Notes: generated by a model from the letters alone, not told the origin. 55,409 nt of DNA from Pseudomonadota bacterium (GCA_043825875.1 JBDRRF010000105.1:1-55409), one strand, 5' to 3'; positions 1,420 to 46,385 are shown, counted from the stretch's first letter. A program made the numbers and translations.

Positions 1420-3182
1420 CGAATCTCCTTTTCAACCTTTTTTATAATCTCTATGACCTTTCCTGCCAGATTACATACCTCATTCCCTTTGCCTGTATAA
1501 ACTGCGCTTTCTAACTCCAGAATAATATCCCGAAATCTGTCTGCCGTTTCTAAGCTGACACCTTTTGTTTTTAATATATCCTGCGCTTGGTTTGCAGTAA
1601 GTAATCCAAGCTCAAGACCAAAACGGTTATTTAAGTAATTTCGCAATTCTGATATCATATCGTTTGAACTTGCTTTCCCTTTGCTGCATTGCCGTATAAA
1701 AATCCCGGCAGCTTTTTTTATCCTGACCGCAGTCATTGCTTCTTTAGATTTTTTATTAAATTTTATAAGTATAAATGCTAATATGTAGCAAAGAAAAGGC
1801 GCGCCAAGCAGAAAAGAAATCAGCAGCGTTCTGTTATTCATCGACAATTCTTTAGTCAGAACTGCAAGGGAATCATGCACTGGCAGAATATCATGACCGA
1901 TTTCCTTAACCTCTTTTTTTACTATATTTTTGTTTTGTTCATCATCGGAAGGCATAACAGATGAGACTAACTGCTCCTTTTCTCCAGGCAGAACGATAAG
2001 TTGCAATGGCTGGGTTTCTATAGAGCGATACTGCTGTTTTTGCGTATCAAAGAAACTTACGGTTAGTGGAGATATTTCATATTGCCCTTCTTTCTCCGGT
2101 ACAAGCGCCCATTTCAATGTTTTTGAACCTTTAATACCGCTTGAATCAACAGATTCTTCAAGTACCGGCTGATCGGCATATGTTTTTATATTTTGCTGCA
2201 TCGGACCTTTCAAGTCCGGTATCATTTTTATATTTCCGTGCCCTTCTACAATTACTGTAAGAGTAGCGGAATCACCCTTTTTTATCTTCAACGGTTCAAG
2301 GCTTGCTTTCATATCGAATGTCCCAACCATACCGGTGAAACCGGAAGGTCTTCCCTGTTTCGGAAGAGGCAGAACCTTTAATTCAAGCGGCTCGCTGATC
2401 ACATTTTTTGGGGTGCCTGTCTGAACGGAGAAAAAAGGATCATCAAATATGCCAAAACCCGATCCGCGGCGAGATTGCATAACGGTAAGGCTTATCCTTG
2501 CGGGTTTTATTGCGTATGTTCCCTCTCTTGAAGGAATTAATATATAGCGGACCTCTACAACCTGATAGGATTTGTCATTATAAACACTTTGGTATTCAGA
2601 AGGTTTTCCAATCTGTTTTATAGTAAGATGTTCAGCTTCAGGAAGAGAAAGGGAAATATCTCTTACGCCGACCTGATAGTATAACTTCAGTGTATAAACA
2701 GCCTGCTCTTCTATATATACTTTCTCAGATGAAAGGCTTGCGTTTAGAAAAATTTCACCCCGGTCAATCCCTGATGAAGCTTTTGGTTTTGTGACAGTAA
2801 TCTTTTCAGTATTGCTTGTTATGGTTTTTCCGTCAATATTCAGACGGGCAGGTCCGATCTCATATGCCCCCTCTTCTTTAGGCTGTATCATATAATTGTA
2901 TTCTACTGCCGAACTGAACTTACCGTTAATTACCTCAACACGGCTTGAAGATCCTTGCTGAATAACATCAAATGAGTCAAGACCGTTAATTGAAGGCTGC
3001 AAATCTGTTGAACGAATACCGGATATTCTGACAACCATTCTTATATTGTCAACAATACTTGCCTCATTCCTATCCAGGCTCAGGTTAATCGACGGGCTGT
3101 TGCCGGCAAAACAGAATAAAGCCGTACCTGTTAAGAAATACAGCACAAAAAGCAATATAATGGCTTTTCTTACTTTATTCAT
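1416..3182 (-). CDS. batD: BatD family protein
   Basis: Signal peptide, repeated Ig-like BatD segments (VLPLP...FTGMVGTF), C-terminal TM; position in bat operon. Confidence 0.9.
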   Translation of the reverse strand: MNKVRKAIILLFVLYFLTGTALFCFAGNSPSINLSLDRNEASIVDNIRMVVRISGIRSTDLQPSINGLDSFDVIQQGSSSRVEVINGKFSSAVEYNYMIQPKEEGAYEIGPARLNIDGKTITSNTEKITVTKPKASSGIDRGEIFLNASLSSEKVYIEEQAVYTLKLYYQVGVRDISLSLPEAEHLTIKQIGKPSEYQSVYNDKSYQVVEVRYILIPSREGTYAIKPARISLTVMQSRRGSGFGIFDDPFFSVQTGTPKNVISEPLELKVLPLPKQGRPSGFTGMVGTFDMKASLEPLKIKKGDSATLTVIVEGHGNIKMIPDLKGPMQQNIKTYADQPVLEESVDSSGIKGSKTLKWALVPEKEGQYEISPLTVSFFDTQKQQYRSIETQPLQLIVLPGEKEQLVSSVMPSDDEQNKNIVKKEVKEIGHDILPVHDSLAVLTKELSMNNRTLLISFLLGAPFLCYILAFILIKFNKKSKEAMTAVRIKKAAGIFIRQCSKGKASSNDMISELRNYLNNRFGLELGLLTANQAQDILKTKGVSLETADRFRDIILELESAVYTGKGNEVCNLAGKVIEIIKKVEKEIR

Positions 3183-3455: not shown

Positions 3456-4853
3456 TTATATTGTTGATGGCACAGCAATATCAGTCCCAGCCACATCAGC
3501 TGCTTCCACCAGTTTCAGGCCAAATTGTTTAGCTCGGTTTTTCATGTTTTTTATTATTCTCTGTTTATATTGCATCTCATAATGTTCTACTCCTTTATCT
3601 ACGTATTCAGTCCCATTCTTAAGCATGCTATAAACAAGCCGGGCCAGTTTGTGTGCTGTGGCTGTTACTGCACCGGGTTTGCCAATTCGTGAACTCATTC
3701 TTCTATAATATGCGCCAAGTGCTGTTTGGCTGCGCCACAAATTCGTTGCTGCTAATCTTAATGCAGCCGCTACTTTATTGGCACATAGCTTTGTTTTACT
3801 TGAAATTGATTTTCCTCCTGAAACTTTATTTCCAGGGCTTAATCCCAACCATGATGCAAAATGCTTTGATGTTTTCCAGGGAGCTACACTAAATCCAACC
3901 TCAGATAAAATGGTAAGTGCGCTGCTTTCATTAATCCCGTCAATTCGTGTAAGATCCACGCCGCTCTTTTCATATAATAAACTGCGTACATCAAATTTAG
4001 GTTGATTCTTTCCGGCTGTTTTTCTTTTTCCCTCAAGAGGATTCTCTTTGATATCTATTACCCTTTTAAATGATTGGAGGGTCTTCTCTATCTCTTGATC
4101 ACATTCTGATATTTTGGTTTGATAGTATTCATAAAGCTCTAAAGCCTGTTTTAGTGCAAATACATGCTCTGACCTATAATTACCTTCCAATGATTTAACA
4201 ATTGTCTGGTAATCGTTTTTGCATCGAACATCCCTGAATTCAGCTAATTTTAAGGGATCACGTTCTCCGCCTACAATTGCATGAATAATTCGCATGCCGG
4301 TAACACCTGTTATATCGCTAATCACATTATGCAAACGAAGGTTCATCAAACTTAAGGCTTTTTGCATATGTAAAACATGAGATGATACAAACCTGACTAA
4401 ATTGGAACGGTGCCTATGTAAGGATCTAATCACACAGATATCTTCAGATGGTCTAAACGCACCTGCCAATAAACCATAAGTATGAAGTTGCTGAAGCCAC
4501 TGACAATCTAAAACATCTGTTTTTCTGCCGCTTACATTCTTAACATGCCGTGCATTGACCAGTTTAACCTCAAAGCCTTCAGATTCAAGATGGTCATACA
4601 GCGGTATCCAATAAACGCCTGTAGATTCCATGGCGATTGTATCTACTTTGCATTTCTTTAACCAGGATGCAATATTGTGAAGATCACAGGTAAAACTGCT
4701 GAATTCTCGTACAGATTCTTTATCACGACCTTCCGGAACTGCTACAAAATGACTTTCAGATCCAATATCAATCCCAGCAGCATTTATATTAATATGTTGT
4801 AAATGCAATGGTAACTTATTGTTTTTGATTTTGCTTTTTTTCTTGATTTTCAT
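3456..4853 (-). CDS. IS110 family DEDD transposase/recombinase (~465 aa)
   Basis: GIDIG, MESTG, KTDVLD (DEDD RuvC-like) and C-terminal PGNKVSGG serine motif; start set at MKIKKK (4853) rather than 5072. Confidence 0.93.
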   Translation of the reverse strand: MKIKKKSKIKNNKLPLHLQHININAAGIDIGSESHFVAVPEGRDKESVREFSSFTCDLHNIASWLKKCKVDTIAMESTGVYWIPLYDHLESEGFEVKLVNARHVKNVSGRKTDVLDCQWLQQLHTYGLLAGAFRPSEDICVIRSLHRHRSNLVRFVSSHVLHMQKALSLMNLRLHNVISDITGVTGMRIIHAIVGGERDPLKLAEFRDVRCKNDYQTIVKSLEGNYRSEHVFALKQALELYEYYQTKISECDQEIEKTLQSFKRVIDIKENPLEGKRKTAGKNQPKFDVRSLLYEKSGVDLTRIDGINESSALTILSEVGFSVAPWKTSKHFASWLGLSPGNKVSGGKSISSKTKLCANKVAAALRLAATNLWRSQTALGAYYRRMSSRIGKPGAVTATAHKLARLVYSMLKNGTEYVDKGVEHYEMQYKQRIIKNMKNRAKQFGLKLVEAADVAGTDIAVPSTI

Positions 4854-4859
4854 TATGCT

Positions 4860-5100
4860 TATCCCCATCGTTATTTTGTTGGCGATGTGTTTTGAATAAG
4901 CGGTGTCGATAAAATGCAATCTCCCAAACGGGATAGCGTCGGGCTTCACCAGTGAGGTTGCCGCCACCTGCCTGGACCATGCTCCTTTGCGGGTATTAAA
5001 CACCGATGGAAAACCGGTCTTCTTTTCAGAACACATCGCTTTCTCTTGGTGTATCATATCTCTCCCTTCCACGCCTTCAGTTTATCCCTTTGGTTAATTT
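4860..5100 (-). ncRNA. candidate IS110 bridge RNA in the non-coding left end (boundaries approximate)
   Basis: 14/15-bp long-range stem 4882-4896 / 5025-5039 enclosing two parallel GGTG...CCCG-N4-GGAG modules that match target and donor junctions. Confidence 0.65.
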
Positions 5101-5117: not shown

Positions 5118-5747
5118 CTCCTTATTATTTAAAGCTTCGTTCCGTTTGCCGGATTCATCCTTATCCTTATCGCTTTTATCTTCCATATTTTTCGAAGATT
5201 GCTTATCGGATGCTTTTTGGTTTTTATTATCATTGTTTTTATTTTCCCCGGACTGGTCCGGCTTGTCTTCTTTCTTTTTAGAATCCTGCCGGGATTCGTT
5301 ATTCCGGTCTTTATTCTTTTGCTTTTGTTTTTCAAGCTCTCGCAAACAAAGCTCCAGATTGTATCCGGCATCTTTATTTCCGGGATTACTTATAATTGCC
5401 TGCTTGTAATATGATGCTGCCGACTCAAAATCTTTTTGCTTAAATGCGGTATTTCCAAGATTATACAACGCCTTATATTTTGTCTCTTTATCTGTCGTTC
5501 TTTTTAAAACACTGGAGAAGGCAGCGATAGCTGCTTTATAATCGGAATTTTTATACGCAGCACAACCCCTGTTATAACGAAAGCGTATATCCTTTGGGTG
5601 ATTCATATCAGCTTCTGTATATGCTTTCTGCGCTTCTGCAAATTTTCCTTGTTTGTAAAGAGAATCAGGATCATTTGCAGCTTTGGCAGTACTTGCATAT
5701 AAAAAAGCTATAATAATTATCATTACTGATAAAAAATATCGTATCAA
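5118..5747 (-). pseudogene. batC: 5' part of batC (signal peptide + TPR repeats + K/D/N/Q-rich linker), interrupted by IS110
   Basis: TPR motifs (YNRGCAAYK, YNLGNTAFK, AGYNLEL); reads 7 codons into the IS and stops at 5094. Confidence 0.88.
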
Positions 5748-6748
5748 TTTTTTATCTTCTCCCTTTCAACTATCAATACCTCTAAAACCAAAAACAAAAA
5801 CACTGTTATCAAAAAAAAGCTGAAACGTTCTTCATATACCTTGATTTTACCGCTCTTTAAGGTTTTTGAAGTTGTCAGTGTTTTTATCCCGTCAAAATAT
5901 ATAAGATCAAGGTCAAGGTCTCCTGTCACGGAACGCGTATAACGGCCTCCTGTCATGGATGCAATTTTTTGGAGAGCATCCTCATTAATTTTTGACATTA
6001 TAACACCACCATCTTGATCTTTTCTGAATCCACCGGTTCCGTCAATAGCAGGAATAGGCCCGCCTGACGTATCACCCATACCGAACACAAATATTTTTAC
6101 CTCTTTTTCTTTCGCCTTTTCCGCCGCCTCAATACACCTTCCCTCATTATCTTCGCCATCTGTTATAAGTATAATTACTTTGTCTGTTTCTACCTTAAAG
6201 TCAAACGCCGAAAGGCCCGTTTCAATAGCCGTTCCCAAATCCGTTCCCGCCAACGGAATAAGATCCGGTTTCAGTTCACCCAGAAACATTTGTAAAGCTC
6301 CGTAATCCAATGTAAGCGGACATTGTACGAATGCAAGTCCTGAAAAAGCAACCAGGCCTATGCGGTCTCCCTGCACTATATTCAACAAATCCAGCACTTC
6401 ACGCCGTGCCCTTTCAACACGGTTGGGTTTTATATCTTCAACCAGCATGCTGGGCGAAACATCAACAAGTATCATTATATCAACACCTTTTTGGGAGACA
6501 TCCTGGTAATGGCTGCCCCAACGAGGACCTGCCAGAGCAAAAATCATTAAACCCAAAGCACAAAGCAGTAATACCGCTTTAGCAAATATTCTTCCTTTAT
6601 GCATTTTTCCGGCAACCCGAACCAGCAAGTCCGGATCGGCGATAAGATCAAGGGCTTTCTTCTTTTGTCTGAATCCAAAAATAATAAGAATTCCAATTGC
6701 GGGCAAAAGCCATAAAAAATGCAATATCCACAGACGCGCAAAAGTCAT
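5744..6748 (-). CDS. batB: BatB-like VWA domain protein
   Basis: MIDAS DVSPSM, ITDGED; N- and C-terminal TM. Confidence 0.9.
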   Translation of the reverse strand: MTFARLWILHFLWLLPAIGILIIFGFRQKKKALDLIADPDLLVRVAGKMHKGRIFAKAVLLLCALGLMIFALAGPRWGSHYQDVSQKGVDIMILVDVSPSMLVEDIKPNRVERARREVLDLLNIVQGDRIGLVAFSGLAFVQCPLTLDYGALQMFLGELKPDLIPLAGTDLGTAIETGLSAFDFKVETDKVIILITDGEDNEGRCIEAAEKAKEKEVKIFVFGMGDTSGGPIPAIDGTGGFRKDQDGGVIMSKINEDALQKIASMTGGRYTRSVTGDLDLDLIYFDGIKTLTTSKTLKSGKIKVYEERFSFFLITVFLFLVLEVLIVEREKIKN

Positions 6749-7740
6749 GGTATGATCCTTAAAATTGTTGTTTTTAAAATCAACTCCGATACCAGAAGAA
6801 TTATCGCAGGAATAAGAAAATAATAATACAGCTCTCTAAAATTAAAAAATTCCTTTACTTTAACCTCCGTCTTTTCCGCTTTGTTAATAATATTATATAT
6901 ATCGGCAAGTTGTTTACTGTCAGCAGCTCTGTAATATTTCCCTTTTCCTATCGTTGCAATTTTAATTAATGTTTGCTCATCAAGATCAACTCTCTGCCTG
7001 ACTATACGCTGGCCGAAAAACGTATTGACCTTAAATGGAGCAGGACCCGTTCCTCCAACACCTATAGTATAAATTTTAATGCCCAGTGCAGCAGCCGCAT
7101 CAGCAGCTTCCTCAGGTGTTATATCACCGGCATTACTTCTGCCGTCTGTCAGGATTATCATAATTTTTGATTTTGCCTTAAGGTCTTTTAGCCTTTTACC
7201 GGCAATAGCTATTGCATTTCCTATCGCTGTGCTGTCACCAGCCATGCCGATCTTCATCTTTTCAACAAGATCAAGAAGCAAACCCTTATCCATAGTCAAA
7301 GGAGACTGAGTAAAGGCTTCCTCTCCGAATACCACAAGACCTATCCTGTCTGTCTCCCTTTTTGTTATAAATTCGGTTATTACCTTCTTAACAACTGCCA
7401 GTCTGGTTACAGGCTCTCCATCAAGCTTAAAATCCATAGCCTGCATGGATCCTGATGTATCAATACACAATATAATATCCACCCCCGAAGAACGTATATC
7501 TCTTGACACATTATACATTTGGGGTCTTGCTGAAGCTATAACAAGGAGAACAAGGCAAAAAGCTCTAAGAACAATCGGAAGCCATGCAATATAGCGGCTG
7601 CCGCTACCGGTTACCGCAGATAAACGGGATGCACATGAGTGTGTAATGCCCTGGCTTCTTCGCTTAAATACAAAAAACACCAATACCGGAATCACAACAA
7701 GCAGAAAGAGAATAACCGGATATTGCAATCTGAACATCAT
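6745..7740 (-). CDS. batA: BatA-like VWA domain protein
   Basis: ARPQ, MIDAS DTSGSM, QSPLT, LTDGRSN, IYTIGVG. Confidence 0.92.
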   Translation of the reverse strand: MMFRLQYPVILFLLVVIPVLVFFVFKRRSQGITHSCASRLSAVTGSGSRYIAWLPIVLRAFCLVLLVIASARPQMYNVSRDIRSSGVDIILCIDTSGSMQAMDFKLDGEPVTRLAVVKKVITEFITKRETDRIGLVVFGEEAFTQSPLTMDKGLLLDLVEKMKIGMAGDSTAIGNAIAIAGKRLKDLKAKSKIMIILTDGRSNAGDITPEEAADAAAALGIKIYTIGVGGTGPAPFKVNTFFGQRIVRQRVDLDEQTLIKIATIGKGKYYRAADSKQLADIYNIINKAEKTEVKVKEFFNFRELYYYFLIPAIILLVSELILKTTILRIIP

Positions 7741-8711
7741 TTATCAATTCCTGTATTGCTTTCCGGAATATCTTTTGTCTCATACACCGGAGCCGTTTCC
7801 TCAATATATTTTATCGCCATAGCCACTTCTTCTTCTTTTTCCACCGCTATCGGAATACTATCTGCAAACTTTACAAGATCTGAGTGACGCAGCAAAGGAA
7901 GAATTTGTCTATCTTTTTCATTATCAATGCGAGACATAATTTCTTCAGTCGTGTATTCTGCTGCCGGAAATCCGCGGATGTTTTCGAGGTATCGTTTTAT
8001 AATTTCTGAAAATCTAAAATAAAACTCTTTAGTATTACCTTTTTCGAAAAGCCCTTTAGCTTCAAGCTCCTCTATATCTTTTCTTGCCCGGATATGCGGT
8101 GGGTCGGAATATTCTAAAATTAATTTTCTTTGCTTATATATTTTGTACCAGCGAAACATTAAGAAACCAGCTATCAGCACAACAATGAAAGCAAATATCA
8201 ATGGCCAGTATTTTAATAATAGGGGTCTCGTGGGTATGATTCCCTGTATGGGTCGAAGCTGTGCTTTTAATGGGTTATCACCAAGATTGGACGATACCTT
8301 AAGCGAAATTGGTTTAGCAGTTAAAACCTGTTTTTTTTGGTCTTTATCAAGATAGGAAAAAGAGATCTCACCTGTTTTTAGCAACCCGGGTTGGCTCGCA
8401 AATAAACTTATTATTATTTTAGCAGGGTATATATGTTGTTTAACAATTGTAAAGCCTTCAAGTCCTTTGACTTCTATCGGCTTGTTTATAGTGGCGCCTT
8501 TGGGCAGATTAAAAGATAAAGTTAAATTAAAAATACTTCCGGCTTTTACGGTGTTTTTGTCCAATGAAGCTTTAAGGTTTATCGTTTTATCTGTTGTATT
8601 ATCCGGTGTATTATCTTTTTTATTATCCATGGAAAAACAGTATAAGGGATAGATAAATAAACATAAAAGAAGAATTGGTATGAAGCAGATTTTACAAACC
8701 GGCCTTTTCAC
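7737..8711 (-). CDS. Bat-operon membrane protein (DUF4381-like)
   Basis: Signal peptide, single TM, C-terminal YTTEEI...DLVKFA motif; sits between DUF58 and batA. Confidence 0.8.
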   Translation of the reverse strand: MKRPVCKICFIPILLLCLFIYPLYCFSMDNKKDNTPDNTTDKTINLKASLDKNTVKAGSIFNLTLSFNLPKGATINKPIEVKGLEGFTIVKQHIYPAKIIISLFASQPGLLKTGEISFSYLDKDQKKQVLTAKPISLKVSSNLGDNPLKAQLRPIQGIIPTRPLLLKYWPLIFAFIVVLIAGFLMFRWYKIYKQRKLILEYSDPPHIRARKDIEELEAKGLFEKGNTKEFYFRFSEIIKRYLENIRGFPAAEYTTEEIMSRIDNEKDRQILPLLRHSDLVKFADSIPIAVEKEEEVAMAIKYIEETAPVYETKDIPESNTGIDK

Positions 8712-10780: not shown

Positions 10781-10923
10781 GAGCCACTTTCAAAACGTTT
10801 CAGTTTGGTCAAGGTCAAAGCGGGCGAAAATTTTAACCGCAGGAATACATCGAGTATTTCGAGGATTAAAATTTGAGCCCAACGCTTAAGATCTGCCAAA
10901 ATGGGACGTTTTAAAACTGGCTC
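10781..10923. mobile_element. MITE copy 1 (143 bp), 4-bp TSD CCTT
   Basis: TIRs GAGCCACTTTCAAAACG / CGTTTTAAAACTGGCTC; CCTT on both flanks; highly similar to copies at 18194 and 46230. Confidence 0.88.
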
Positions 10924-14107: not shown

Positions 14108-14136
14108 TTGACCTAAGAGGCTATTTTCCTTATTAT
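14108..14136 (+). promoter_or_regulatory. possible sigma-70 promoter for the cyclase-like gene
   Basis: TTGACC-17 bp-TATTAT. Confidence 0.45.
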
Positions 14137-14217: not shown

Positions 14218-16536
14218 ATGTTCGGTTTGTCACAAAACTTATTAAAGTTGCCATCTCTTAGCGTTTTTCCCCTCAAATATTATACTGCCAGTTTCTCTCT
14301 CGATCAATTGGTACCGGGAGTTGATAATATACGATATGATGTTTTGATAAGTTCTGTATTTATTAATGACACCCGCAAATTAATCAATCGGTTGATGTCA
14401 CATCATGCCGGGGTCGAAAAAAAAGGAGTTGGATCATCTTCAGGCGAATGGAGCATAGAAGTAGAAAATTATAAGCAGATTTATAAAGAACTGATGCTTG
14501 ACGCCATAAACAATGCTAAACTTAACAAACGGATTTCTGTAGTATATCTGGCTCAATCAACCATGCTTAAAATACTGCTTGATGAAATCAGAACACAGTA
14601 TGACATTCTAATAAATCAACTTAAAAAAACCGTACAACAGACCAATCTTTCCATATTTGACTATACTAATCCTGAAGAATCAATTGATTATAGGGGAAAC
14701 CTGCGGAAGATCCATTTAGATCGTGATACTATCGAACAGAAGGTTTGCAAGGAAATATGCGGATTCTGGGCTGAAATTGAACAAAACGACATTCAACCAA
14801 TGCTTGAATCTATATTTGGCGATGACTCAAAGCTTTTCGAAAATCTTCTCACCAATCCCATCCTGCATTCTCAGCAATATGATAATGCATTTATAATGCT
14901 TAACGAATACGATTTATGCCTTGGCCGTCGTGCCAATGATCCTGATAAATATGAAAAGCTGATCTTTCTTGTTCATCAAATACTCAGTGCTATCGGCTTA
15001 AATGATTCCGTTTCTTCCCCTGTAACAATCGAACAGCGTTTGAACCCGCTTATTGAAGATAAAGATGAAGTTTTAAATAACCGCCACGCCTACGCTGAAA
15101 AAAATGAGGGAATAATTCAATATCCTGAAAACATGGATTTGCTTTTCAACTGGCGGCGGACAAAAGTCAATTACAAGAACTCAAAAAAGCAAAAAGCCCC
15201 CCATGACGAGCTTATACAGCTGAAAAAACTCATTAAAAATGAAAAGAAACTATTGCATTATCTATATAAGAAATTCAAACGAAAAGGATTGATCGAGATT
15301 ATTTCTGCATCATATGGAATGCAACCGGAACATCAGAAATACTGCCCTCCTCTTAAACCCCAACAGATCGTACAGTATGTGATCTCAACAAAGGCGCGTA
15401 AAATCATAAAAAAAAGACTTAAAAGAATGAACAAGGACTACGGGCAATCCATTTCTCTTCGTCCACTAAATAAAAAAATTAAAGCACTTCAAAACACAAC
15501 CGCATCCCAGCACAAAATTTTTCTTCTCCGTTTTATTAAAGCTTTTTCCCGTTATCATCGGGATGTATGTAATTTCAGATTAATCCATGAATGCATGGAG
15601 CAGGTGAATATCGCCATAGACGATAAGATCATAAACCTTTCGCGGGCGAACAATACTTTATATCAATTCCTGTTGCCCCACGAGCGGCCTCCGGAAAAGG
15701 CAACTATTACAAACCATGCGGTAATAAAAGCTGATTTGCGGGGATCTACAGATATCACCCACCGGATGATCGAGCGCGGTTTGAATCCAGCCTCATTTTT
15801 CAGCCTGAACTTTTTTGATCCAATATCTGACATTCTTTCCGAGTATGATGCAACAAAAAACTTTATCGAAGGCGATGCTGTAATTTTATCGATATTTGAG
15901 TACGAAAATGCGCCAGCCGGCTGGTTCAGTGTCTCAAAAGCATGCTGTATTGCTCTTAATATATTAACAATTATCAAGCGGTATAATGAAAAAAGTGCGA
16001 AATTTCAACTTCCTATTCTTGAACTTGGCATAGGTGTAAGTTATTCAAATACAGTCCCGACCTTTCTTTTCGACCGTGATAATCGTATCATGATTTCATC
16101 AGCAATAAACCAGGCAGATCGTTTATCAAGATGTTCTAAAGCAGGCTTGCAATTCTTTGCTGACAAGAATAATCTTTTTAATATTTACGTTTTTCAAACT
16201 ATCGATGATAACAATATTAATGATACCACTGATGATATTTTCATAAGGTATAATATCAATGGCATTGAGTTAAATGAAAAAGGTTTTGAAAAACTTTCCA
16301 ATGAAATTGACTTAAAGCCTTTGCAAGGCAGTTTTGACGATATAATTAAAGTTAAATCGAATTTTTATACCGGCAAACTACCAACAAAAAGTGGCTATTA
16401 TCAACGCTTATTAATACGTGAAGCTCAGATTCCAATTATTGATCCGGCCACATTTGAGATAAAAAGCATATCCTCCCACAAATATTACGAAGTATGCACC
16501 CATCCAAAGCTTTATGAATGGGCAAATAAGACCTGA
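14218..16536 (+). CDS. large soluble protein with C-terminal class III nucleotidyl cyclase-like domain
   Basis: KADLRGST, FIEGDAV, LGIGVS, SSAINQADRL motifs in the order expected for class III cyclases; ~490-aa helical N-terminus of unknown family. Confidence 0.75.
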   Translation: MFGLSQNLLKLPSLSVFPLKYYTASFSLDQLVPGVDNIRYDVLISSVFINDTRKLINRLMSHHAGVEKKGVGSSSGEWSIEVENYKQIYKELMLDAINNAKLNKRISVVYLAQSTMLKILLDEIRTQYDILINQLKKTVQQTNLSIFDYTNPEESIDYRGNLRKIHLDRDTIEQKVCKEICGFWAEIEQNDIQPMLESIFGDDSKLFENLLTNPILHSQQYDNAFIMLNEYDLCLGRRANDPDKYEKLIFLVHQILSAIGLNDSVSSPVTIEQRLNPLIEDKDEVLNNRHAYAEKNEGIIQYPENMDLLFNWRRTKVNYKNSKKQKAPHDELIQLKKLIKNEKKLLHYLYKKFKRKGLIEIISASYGMQPEHQKYCPPLKPQQIVQYVISTKARKIIKKRLKRMNKDYGQSISLRPLNKKIKALQNTTASQHKIFLLRFIKAFSRYHRDVCNFRLIHECMEQVNIAIDDKIINLSRANNTLYQFLLPHERPPEKATITNHAVIKADLRGSTDITHRMIERGLNPASFFSLNFFDPISDILSEYDATKNFIEGDAVILSIFEYENAPAGWFSVSKACCIALNILTIIKRYNEKSAKFQLPILELGIGVSYSNTVPTFLFDRDNRIMISSAINQADRLSRCSKAGLQFFADKNNLFNIYVFQTIDDNNINDTTDDIFIRYNINGIELNEKGFEKLSNEIDLKPLQGSFDDIIKVKSNFYTGKLPTKSGYYQRLLIREAQIPIIDPATFEIKSISSHKYYEVCTHPKLYEWANKT

Positions 16537-18193: not shown

Positions 18194-18335
18194 GAGCCAC
18201 TTTCAAAACGTTTCAGTTTGGTCAAGCTCAAGGCGGGAGAAAATTTCAACCGCAGGAATACATTTAGTATTTCGAGGATTGAAATTTGAGCCCAACACAG
18301 AGATCGGCCAAAATGGGGCGTTTTGAAACTGGCTC
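18194..18335. mobile_element. MITE copy 2 (142 bp)
   Basis: TIRs match 16/17; flanks AAAA / AACA (degenerate TSD). Confidence 0.88.
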
Positions 18336-19709: not shown

Positions 19710-20621
19710 TTATCTTACAATCATCAGATCATCTATGCTCTGTTCAATCTTTTCCAGATTCTCTTTTGAATTAAAAAGCATTTCACACAACTCGCATTTG
19801 CGATACCGCACTATTTCACTGGCCATAAACCCCAGATAAGTAGCCATGCGAGTAAGCCCTATACTTCGGATCAGATGATATATTTTATGCTGTTCTTTTT
19901 TTTCAAACAGTTCATCCACAGATTCCTTTTCCAAATTTCCAAGGTATAAAAACCCGGTTTTCAAAAACCGGTTTCCGGCGTCACAGCAGGCATACATGTC
20001 CTGATTGGGAGAAAGATAAGCATTCATGGAACATATGTTAGGATAATAATCTGTAAAGATCTGTCTGCGGTCAAAATTCTCTGCTCTTCCGAAATAGATT
20101 ACAGGTTCCGGAAAATATCGCAACTCATTTTCTTTAAGAAACTGTTCAACATCGTCATCTGTTTTAGAAAAATCCGTAACAAAGGAAACAAAATAATCCA
20201 GACCCTGTTTTATACAAGCGGCTGCCGCATTAACAATGTTTGCACGGTCGATATTCTCCTGATGCCAGCGGCTGGTGCTGATCCTCATCTGGGACAGGCC
20301 GCTTTTTCGCAGTGTAGATACCATTTTATCTGCCTGATCCGATGTGTTCGCCCAGAATCCATTGGTAACCACCCTTGTATAAATCCGGTTTTTTCTACAA
20401 ACCAAAATCAGACCGCAGATATCATCTGAAAATATGAGCGGTTCTCCGGCAGTAAAACTGATACCACTCACATGAGCTAAGGCCATTTCTTCGATGATTT
20501 CTTTTGCCCGGATAAAGTCCATTTTGTCTGCACCCGGAGACCCGTCGGAGGCCACGCAGTGGGCGCATTTTACATTACACCTGGTAGAATATCCAAAAGC
20601 TATTTGTCTTGGTTGATTCAT
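19710..20621 (-). CDS. radical SAM protein with Cys-rich C-terminal extension
   Basis: CNVKCAHC (CxxxCxxC), FTAGEP, VTNGFWA; C-terminal C...CC...CxxC. Confidence 0.9.
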   Translation of the reverse strand: MNQPRQIAFGYSTRCNVKCAHCVASDGSPGADKMDFIRAKEIIEEMALAHVSGISFTAGEPLIFSDDICGLILVCRKNRIYTRVVTNGFWANTSDQADKMVSTLRKSGLSQMRISTSRWHQENIDRANIVNAAAACIKQGLDYFVSFVTDFSKTDDDVEQFLKENELRYFPEPVIYFGRAENFDRRQIFTDYYPNICSMNAYLSPNQDMYACCDAGNRFLKTGFLYLGNLEKESVDELFEKKEQHKIYHLIRSIGLTRMATYLGFMASEIVRYRKCELCEMLFNSKENLEKIEQSIDDLMIVR

Positions 20622-46201: not shown

Positions 46202-46229
46202 GGCAAACCTTATATACAATCTATCAAAT

Positions 46230-46371
46230 GAGCCACTTTCAAAACATTTCAGTTTGGTCAAGCTCAAGGCGGGCGAAAATTTCAACCACAGGAATACATT
46301 TAGTATTTCGAGGATTGAAATTTGAGCCCAACGCAGAGATCGGCCAAAATGGGGCGTTTTGAAACTGGCTC
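46230..46371. mobile_element. MITE copy 3 (142 bp), 4-bp TSD AAAT
   Basis: Same TIRs; AAAT at 46226-46229 and 46372-46375. Confidence 0.9.
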
Positions 46372-46385
46372 AAATACATAATGCA

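Follow-up and report, generated by a model that had tools for sequence, protein, structure and literature searches.

In mammalian adenylate cyclase (AC) the phenylalanine of the F-x-D motif and the residue two before the second metal-binding aspartate line the base pocket. According to PMC7384201, ACs read adenine by Lys together with Asp or Thr, guanylate cyclases (GCs) read guanine by Glu together with Cys or Ser, and the second of the base-specifying residues is known to vary. Determinants of base choice have also been given for the PycC enzymes of the Pycsar systems (PMC11224242). These are F100, R142 and Q144 in EaPycC (metal ligands D102 and D146), F60, K104 and F109 in AnPycC (metal ligands D62 and D106) and Y50, D94 and R97 in BcPycC, which uses them for UTP. 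By spacing and alignment they lie two before the first metal aspartate, four or two before the second, or just after it. In the literature examined, the cUMP and cCMP that bacteria make with class III cyclases are tied to phage defence, in the form of Pycsar. Here we describe a family in which the base pocket of the class III cyclases has been rebuilt.

The gene studied lies at 14218..16536 on the plus strand of a 55,409-nucleotide stretch of DNA from a Pseudomonadota bacterium, the whole of which we call the window. It encodes a protein of 772 amino acids, P0001, that has no membrane domain and is present in a single copy in the host genome. A preliminary description made from the sequence had proposed the absence of transmembrane segments, and the highest 19-residue hydropathy is only 1.59, at a position inside the cyclase domain. 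The same description placed the gene between a divergent RNase II and a convergent oxidoreductase gene, and these are indeed an RNB gene and a gene for an FAD-dependent protein. The remainder of the window contains LPS, BamA, Lol, lysS and rRNA genes, and an Rfam scan of the window returned rRNA genes only. The GC content of the gene is host-like, and its location is the core chromosome. A sigma-70-like promoter candidate (14108..14136, plus strand; 10 of 12 matches, 17-nt spacer) sits in the 210-nt gap common to the gene and the divergent RNase II gene. Six such sites were observed in the region against 9.7 expected from shuffles, and the candidate is no more than chance would give. Three sets of RNA contigs from the same study do not cover the gene, which is not evidence either way.

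How widespread is the protein? Searches of Pfam and NCBIfam with P0001 gave no meaningful match, and a sequence search of the PDB gave none. Specifically, a match to PF00211 is absent at E 0.1 for P0001 and at E 0.01 for 48 homologues, and a profile built from 122 diverse members reached Cya2 in the PDB only at E 2.6. We ascribe the missing PF00211 match to divergence, since the fold and profile comparisons given below both identify a class III cyclase. The protein had been taken for an orphan, and this has to be given up. A protein search found 1,248 homologues among 7,999 scored candidates, many of them 50% identical over the full length; in a representative library clustered at 50% identity the family accounts for 501 clusters, with E values of 1e-30 or lower for 207; and GTDB contigs contributed 313 loci. 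The best 80 of these 313 come mainly from Desulfobacterales (Desulfobacterium, Desulfosarcina, Desulfatitalea and Desulfonema) and from Smithella/Syntrophaceae. The family is also found in Syntrophales, its distant named members belong to Gammaproteobacteria, Chromatiales, Achromatium, Mariprofundaceae (Zetaproteobacteria) and Nitrospiraceae, and Atlas clusters extend it to Acidobacteriota. Sampling of the order of the host found the family in 117 of 301 genomes, mostly as one copy, and a sample taken across the phylum found it in 7 of 401. Full-length matches occur in 8 of the 17 genomes of the host genus, and those genomes of the genus that measure 2.1–3.0 Mb gave no match with the P0001 query. 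A search for fusions longer than 1,351 amino acids found none, which is weak evidence.

Comparison with four orthologues from the same genus gave a dN/dS of 0.04–0.10 for the cyclase domain vs 0.18–0.20 for the N-terminal part. The gene is under purifying selection that is strongest in the cyclase domain. In some database entries members carry the automatic label 'class 3 adenylate cyclase'. Among the papers listed by the literature search none describes the family, though the supplementary cyclase-tree accessions of the Pucsar preprint could include members. The earlier view of an uncharacterised family is supported, and the family goes undetected by Pfam and NCBIfam in hundreds of genomes.

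The cyclase-homology domain comprises residues ~493–766 (15694..16515, plus strand) as defined by Foldseek and VIA-align. The full-length model has a pLDDT of 82.6. Foldseek gave a best E value of 5.5e-6, with class III cyclases throughout the matches listed, and the best VIA-align superposition was with mammalian AC 1cs4 (Z 15.6, rmsd 4.2 over 178 residues, model range 467–760), followed by Z 15.3 for both Cya2 and CyaB. The C-terminal strands of the class III fold are present in the model. A profile of the family domain was matched to 20 ordinary bacterial class III cyclases with 96.9% probability (E 1.8e-10, local mode), and to PycC with 4%, where the PycC profile was built from three sequences only. 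The predicted structure thus shows the C-terminal domain to have the class III cyclase fold, in accord with the preliminary description. A GGDEF diguanylate cyclase was considered and rejected: the motif is E-G-D-A, the profile of 15 host GGDEF domains was matched with 0.5% probability, and GGDEF domains reach a VIA-align Z of at most 10.2, some 5 units below the class III cyclases. A homodimer prediction for residues 462–772, run without controls, scored 0.30 against a mark of 0.42 and is counted neither for nor against a dimer.

Conservation was analysed in 193 members that share less than 70% identity with one another; they were picked from a set of 398 distinct sequences, each 650 amino acids or longer. 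Three segments, all on the plus strand, carry the active site. The first, K504-A-D506-L-R508-G-S-T (15727..15750), contains the first metal aspartate and the phosphate-binding loop, with Lys replacing the Phe of F-x-D. The second, K547-x-F549-I-E551-G-D553-A (15856..15879), contains the second metal aspartate, with Phe at the purine-selecting K/E site. The third, I624-M-I-S627-S-A-I-N631-Q-A-D634-R635 (16087..16122), contains the second purine-selecting site and the transition-state Asn and Arg. All three motifs singled out in the preliminary description (KADLRGST, IEGDA and NQADR) are present. Its claim that both metal aspartates and the N-x3-R pair are retained holds near-invariantly across the family, with the exception of the Asn. 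The metal aspartates are kept in 192/193 (D506) and 193/193 (D553), R508 of the phosphate loop in 193/193 and the transition-state R635 in 182/192, and all four occur together in 181/193. The transition-state N631 is kept in 135/192, is Gly in 44 and is replaced in 57/192 overall. An active class III enzyme, Ma1120, has Ala at this site (PMC4215837), so a cyclase of this class can work without the Asn. Within the alignment the family is shown to retain the catalytic set D506, D553, R508 and R635, and mostly N631.

The base pocket is another matter. The purine-selecting K/E site is Phe (F549) in 189/193 members, and the second purine-selecting site (I624) is Ile in 188/192. K504, in the place of the F-x-D Phe, is invariant (193/193), and E551, two before the second aspartate at a usually hydrophobic position, is found in 191/193. 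S627 takes the place of a conserved Gly in 192/192, and D634, an unusual Asp directly before the catalytic Arg, is present in 187/192. Together with K547, which precedes the usual Lys site by two residues, the polar residues K504, E551, S627 and D634 are 97–100% conserved, and the complete seven-residue pocket signature is found in 182/193 members. The hydrophobic second purine site and the Ser for Gly go beyond the preliminary description, whose Phe at the K/E site, Lys in F-x-D and Glu before G-D stand once the register is established. The profile alignment to the 20 ordinary cyclases brings the motifs into register and is free of gaps at the G-D motif. Of 31 comparison cyclases 23 fit the motif pattern, 8 having been dropped. 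At the corresponding positions the 20 ordinary enzymes have Phe (18), Lys (18), a non-charged residue (20), Thr (20), Gly (20) and Ala or Ser (19), and K, F, E, I, S or D at the six pocket positions was found in 0/20. The canonical AC signature, with Lys four before the second aspartate and Asp or Thr seven before the Asn, is replaced by F549 and I/V624, and that of the GCs and PucC, with Glu four before the second aspartate, by Phe at that position and a Glu two before the Asp. Since they are near-invariant in 193 members below 70% identity, the pocket features are real and not the result of chance. They suggest that the pocket no longer admits a purine in the canonical pose.

What, then, would such an enzyme make? 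We favour the reading that P0001 is a predicted active, stand-alone class III cyclase whose main product is not cAMP, with a pyrimidine substrate preferred, and give it a probability of roughly 0.45. The odds attached to this and to the other readings are judgements. The main product is most likely not cAMP because the base-reading residues are replaced by a permuted set like that of BcPycC. Moreover, the host carries six ordinary PF00211 cyclases beside P0001, so that a further source of cAMP would be redundant unless it were wired differently. The first three PycC determinant positions are held here by K504, F549 and E551, although the residues themselves differ (PMC11224242), and this coincidence of invariant pocket residues with the positions of base choice in Pycsar strengthens the idea of an unusual product. 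As to which product, cUMP or cCMP is possible rather than probable, and all the characterised PycCs hold an aromatic residue at the K504 site, which counts against it; cGMP is improbable. The argument from the pocket rests on the sequence register.

The most serious competing explanation is that the protein is an adenylate cyclase, or a promiscuous purine cyclase, with a rearranged pocket, in which K547 reads adenine and K504 and E551 form a structural salt bridge; its novelty would then lie in regulation by the helical region. This we consider unlikely, though there is a good deal to be said for it. K547 is present in 192/193 members and could take over the reading of adenine. The nearest sequence profile is that of ordinary bacterial ACs, and in structure ACs and GCs match best, with the PycCs 1.7–2.5 Z units below these. 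Some mycobacterial cyclases with odd pocket residues, such as Rv1900c, still make cAMP. The variability of the second base-specifying residue (PMC7384201) points the same way. Yet F549 occupies the canonical Lys position and lies between K547 and the pocket, the second site is Ile or Val in all 192 of 192, and the polar residues that are new and invariant in the family coincide with positions that determine base choice in the PycCs. The six ordinary cyclases of the host also speak against a further enzyme of this type.

A protein that is no cyclase at all seems rather unlikely. It might be a nucleotide-binding sensor or pseudo-enzyme, a heterodimer partner of the ordinary cyclases, or the catalyst of another two-metal reaction such as nucleotide transfer or hydrolysis. 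About 30% of members do without the transition-state Asn, yet D634 persists in 187, and this leaves room for a different chemistry and so weighs on our preferred reading too. D634 and S627 are both atypical, the C-terminal hairpin showed no Lys conserved at the 70% level, and the large conserved N-terminal region with its basic surface could be an output domain. On the other hand, metal aspartates, phosphate loop and catalytic Arg are jointly kept in 181/193, the C-terminal strands of the class III fold are retained, and there is no fixed partner gene adjacent.

The N-terminal part of the protein is a family-specific, all-helical region of ~485 amino acids (residues 9–492; 14242..15693, plus strand) in the AlphaFold model, so that its description as helical stands. 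Modelled alone it has a pLDDT of 85.1 and a pTM of 0.84, and it is conserved together with the cyclase domain in full-length homologues. It is presumed to be regulatory. A G-x-D36-N37-x-x-x-D41 motif (14317..14340, plus strand) marks its start, with D36 and N37 each conserved in 187/190 and D41 in 190/190. An acidic segment (residues 201–311, net −10) precedes a basic helical segment (residues 312–445; 15151..15552, plus strand) of net charge +30, the very basic segment reported earlier. The family medians are −9 and +15, and the basic segment has a net charge of at least +8 in 145/193 members. Just before the cyclase domain there is a conserved element, L-S475-R-x-N478-x-T-L481...P487 (15637..15678, plus strand), in which S475 is kept in 180/193, N478 in 178/193 and L481 in 189/193, but P487 in only 91/190. 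We take this to resemble, possibly, a 'handle helix' or a transducer-like element. The model of residues 9–494 had no Foldseek match at E 0.001 in the PDB or BFVD, and an Atlas search with residues 20–490 gave no usable named match. Several FtsX/LolC/MacB membrane domains align at Z 6–7.2 with 2–10% identity. The best VIA-align Z of 7.5 is within the range of common helical arrangements, and the fold is therefore neither assigned nor shown to be new.

In a subset of the family the N-terminal region is itself extended. Of 122 aligned members, 22 have 120–190 extra N-terminal residues, mostly with 2–4 hydrophobic stretches, and the named ones are from Gammaproteobacteria/Chromatiales. A match to PF01252 (signal peptidase II) is found in 10 of the 22, 8 above the cut-off, and a profile of the extensions retrieves the two lspA-like genes of the host (E 5e-14 and 3e-8). 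By sequence, this N-terminal membrane domain is derived from lipoprotein signal peptidase. We presume the catalytic aspartates of LspA to correspond to the V-x-D-F and N-x-A-D motifs. LspA requires an aspartate dyad, D124 and D143 in Pseudomonas aeruginosa (PMC8048626). Just one of 29 extensions examined has all three LspA motifs in place; 8 of the 29 have Glu at the first catalytic Asp, and most others are decayed. A quick family tree requires four changes of this trait. Fusion with a signal peptidase that has decayed hints at membrane input of an unusual kind, such that in these lineages the enzyme may act at the membrane or take its input from there. For P0001 itself, the basic surface is only a candidate substitute for the membrane domain. 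A loss of the basic patch in the membrane-anchored members was considered and found unsupported, the medians being +14 vs +15.

Does the genomic context indicate a signalling partner? We compared 160 loci, 80 from genomes (the best 80 of the 313) and 80 from metagenomes. They divide into 68 neighbourhood groups; the upstream genes belong to 72 clusters and the downstream genes to 90, so the neighbourhood analysis called for at the outset leads us to reject a conserved partner gene. Synteny is kept only within lineages, next to housekeeping genes, and no receptor or phosphodiesterase gene is conserved nearby among the 160 loci. HD-GYP-type genes occur near 32 of them, almost all from two clades; a cNMP-binding neighbour is found in only 4, as a lone 139-amino-acid protein; GAF-ANTAR lies directly downstream in 3, and PilZ is found in 3. 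These signalling neighbours are not counted as support, since their number is about that expected by chance on a rough estimate from host gene counts.

The preliminary description had also held that assignment to Pycsar was not supported, and the family data agree. There is no adjacent effector, PycTM does not co-occur with the family, the location is core chromosome and selection is purifying; Pycsar is rejected. With a single PycTM model, PycTM-like genes were found in 8/117 carriers vs 18/184 non-carriers, and the host has none. A PycTM profile of our own gave no match in 1,836 neighbour ORFs, a result that carries no weight because its leave-one-out control stayed empty as well. Three true Pycsar loci, taken as controls, have an adjacent PycTM as expected. 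The PADLOC PycC model matched P0001 at E 0.001, ordinary cyclases at ~1e-20 and the three true Pycsar loci at 1e-31 to 1e-71, and since ordinary cyclases score so well with this model the weak match of P0001 is not diagnostic. A Pycsar-like anti-phage cyclase with its effector encoded elsewhere in the genome would fit the pocket changes on PycC determinant positions and the patchy distribution (117/301 in the order, 7/401 in the phylum sample), but is very improbable given the PycTM counts, the absence of PADLOC effector matches among 8 window neighbours, the host-like GC, lineage-stable synteny and low dN/dS of a core-chromosomal gene, and the lack of any match in phage and plasmid collections (one query each).

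On our preferred reading, of a cyclase whose main product is not cAMP, the protein would be a class III cyclase from a family of its own, soluble or, in some lineages, anchored in the membrane, and would serve stand-alone physiological signalling. By analogy with the class III cyclases, two copies would form shared active sites in which D506 and D553 bind Mg or Mn, and the catalytic Arg would stabilize attack by the 3′-OH to give a 3′,5′-cyclic nucleotide. K504 and E551 would read the base in place of Lys/Asp-Thr (ATP) or Glu/Cys (GTP), and the former purine positions would be taken up by F549 and I624. The helical region of 485 amino acids could control the geometry of the dimer through the conserved element before the catalytic domain, and action at the membrane may be possible by way of the basic surface here and the signal-peptidase-derived anchor in some Gammaproteobacteria. 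Taken further, the family could be a widespread, defence-independent source of cUMP or cCMP as messengers in environmental bacteria, with a convergent Lys/Phe/Glu pocket, its own helical sensor and, in some members, a decayed LspA as membrane sensor or anchor; this larger proposal is doubtful. Were it true, a decayed signal peptidase would couple the state of the envelope to a messenger in some Gammaproteobacteria. A conserved stand-alone family with pocket changes at PycC positions makes the occurrence of pyrimidine or other non-standard cyclic nucleotides in ordinary bacterial physiology directly testable. Should the product prove to be cAMP or cGMP, the base would still be read in a new way.

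It is instructive to set the family beside the known enzymes. With the bacterial class III AC/GC set (CyaB 3r5g, CyaC 1wc1, Cya2 2w01 and Rv1625c 7yzi) and 1cs4, P0001 superimposes at Z 15.0–15.6 and rmsd 3.1–4.2 over 171–182 residues, at only 11–17% identity. The two metal aspartates, the D-x-R-G-x-T loop, N-x3-R and the G-I-G-I strand are common to both. Where the ACs and GCs have Lys/Thr or Glu/Cys the family has Phe/Ile, and it has Lys for the Phe of F-x-D, Glu before G-D, Ser for Gly and Asp before Arg; its own helical region of 485 amino acids stands in place of the known AC/GC sensor domains. Likeness to LspA (PF01252) is confined to the N-terminal domain of the ~900-amino-acid members and is absent from P0001. 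In PucC, which makes cGMP on a class III scaffold, E118 and K195 are modelled as reading the base (bioRxiv 10.64898/2026.08.12.744502). E118 is four before the second aspartate D122, the classical GC position at which our family has Phe, and PucC is linked to TIR/TM effectors. By analogy, the Glu/Lys pair of the family could read guanine as modelled for PucC.

The PycC folds superimpose on P0001 with Z values of 13.9 (BcPycC 7r65), 13.2 (EaPycC 8jsf), 13.1 (AnPycC 8jsz) and 11.8 (PaPycC 6yii). An N-terminal helix is a hallmark of PycC, and the alignment to 7r65 reaches model residue 457, with an rmsd of 7.2. The PycCs measure about 230–340 amino acids, vs 770–950 for the family, and have Lys where the family has the transition-state Arg. 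The family has no adjacent or co-occurring effector and, unlike the Pycsar PycCs, lies in core-genome context under purifying selection. The characterised PycCs keep Phe or Tyr where the family has K504, and BcPycC and AnPycC have Val at the site of I624. Two before the second aspartate there is a polar residue in three of them, D94 in BcPycC, Q144 in EaPycC and K104 in AnPycC, corresponding to E551 of P0001. There is a parallel with BcPycC: its pocket and that of the family each combine an aromatic residue, an acid and a base, with the places of the aromatic and the basic residue exchanged.

At four loci of other family members (L027, L029, L032 and L068), which have a Desulfosarcina-type neighbourhood, the gene for a lone 139-aa cNMP-binding-domain protein adjoins the family gene, downstream and on the opposite strand. 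In its phosphate-binding cassette, Trp and Leu occupy two positions at which cNMP-binding domains usually have Glu and Arg, and the cassette looks non-canonical. Just upstream of the family gene, and on the same strand, there are two unrelated HD-GYP-type phosphodiesterase genes, in separate clades and in 32 loci in total. One is a receiver-HD-GYP gene (6746–7759 of locus L004, and relatives); the other encodes a 480-aa form (6533–7975 of L054, and relatives), and adjoins the gene for a 579-aa helical-repeat protein. The presence of HD-GYP-type genes in these 32 loci may be due to chance.

Some members of the family (P0172, P0182, P0241 and P0293–P0299; loci L081 and L082) carry an N-terminal membrane domain derived from lipoprotein signal peptidase, and are annotated merely as 'signal peptidase II'. 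The peptidase catalytic motifs are kept in one of these, P0241, but lost in most.

The family gene is tandemly duplicated in at least one Syntrophales-type locus. The duplicate lies at 5675–7102 and 8025–9464 of L058 and on contig C143 of genome G261. Within the host's genus (loci L186–L193) there are two gene types: one is 70–94% identical to the copy in the window, the other 39–41%. This pattern points to either replacement by transfer or old paralogy.

A repeat of ~135 nt forming a long hairpin (predicted −52 kcal/mol) lies at 18196–18330 of the window, with further copies near 10781–10923 and 46222–46373; the host genome holds about 280 copies. An Rfam search of the window gave no match to it. 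Short pieces resembling it are plentiful in three RNA contig sets. It is probably a REP/MITE-like intergenic element. Elsewhere in the window an IS110-family transposase gene (3456–5072, minus strand) sits within a MoxR/DUF58/vWA/Bat operon, flanked by a TPR gene and batD. The product of 19710–20621 (minus strand) is a radical SAM/SPASM protein, whose weak PADLOC viperin match (E = 3e-10), confined to the N-terminal part, is probably a generic radical SAM match.

Among the Pycsar control loci, L161 has a PycC and PycTM pair (1435–2875, minus strand). Its cyclase retains the Lys and Thr of adenylate cyclases at both purine-selecting sites, and the pair is a candidate for a Pycsar-like system that would use cAMP.
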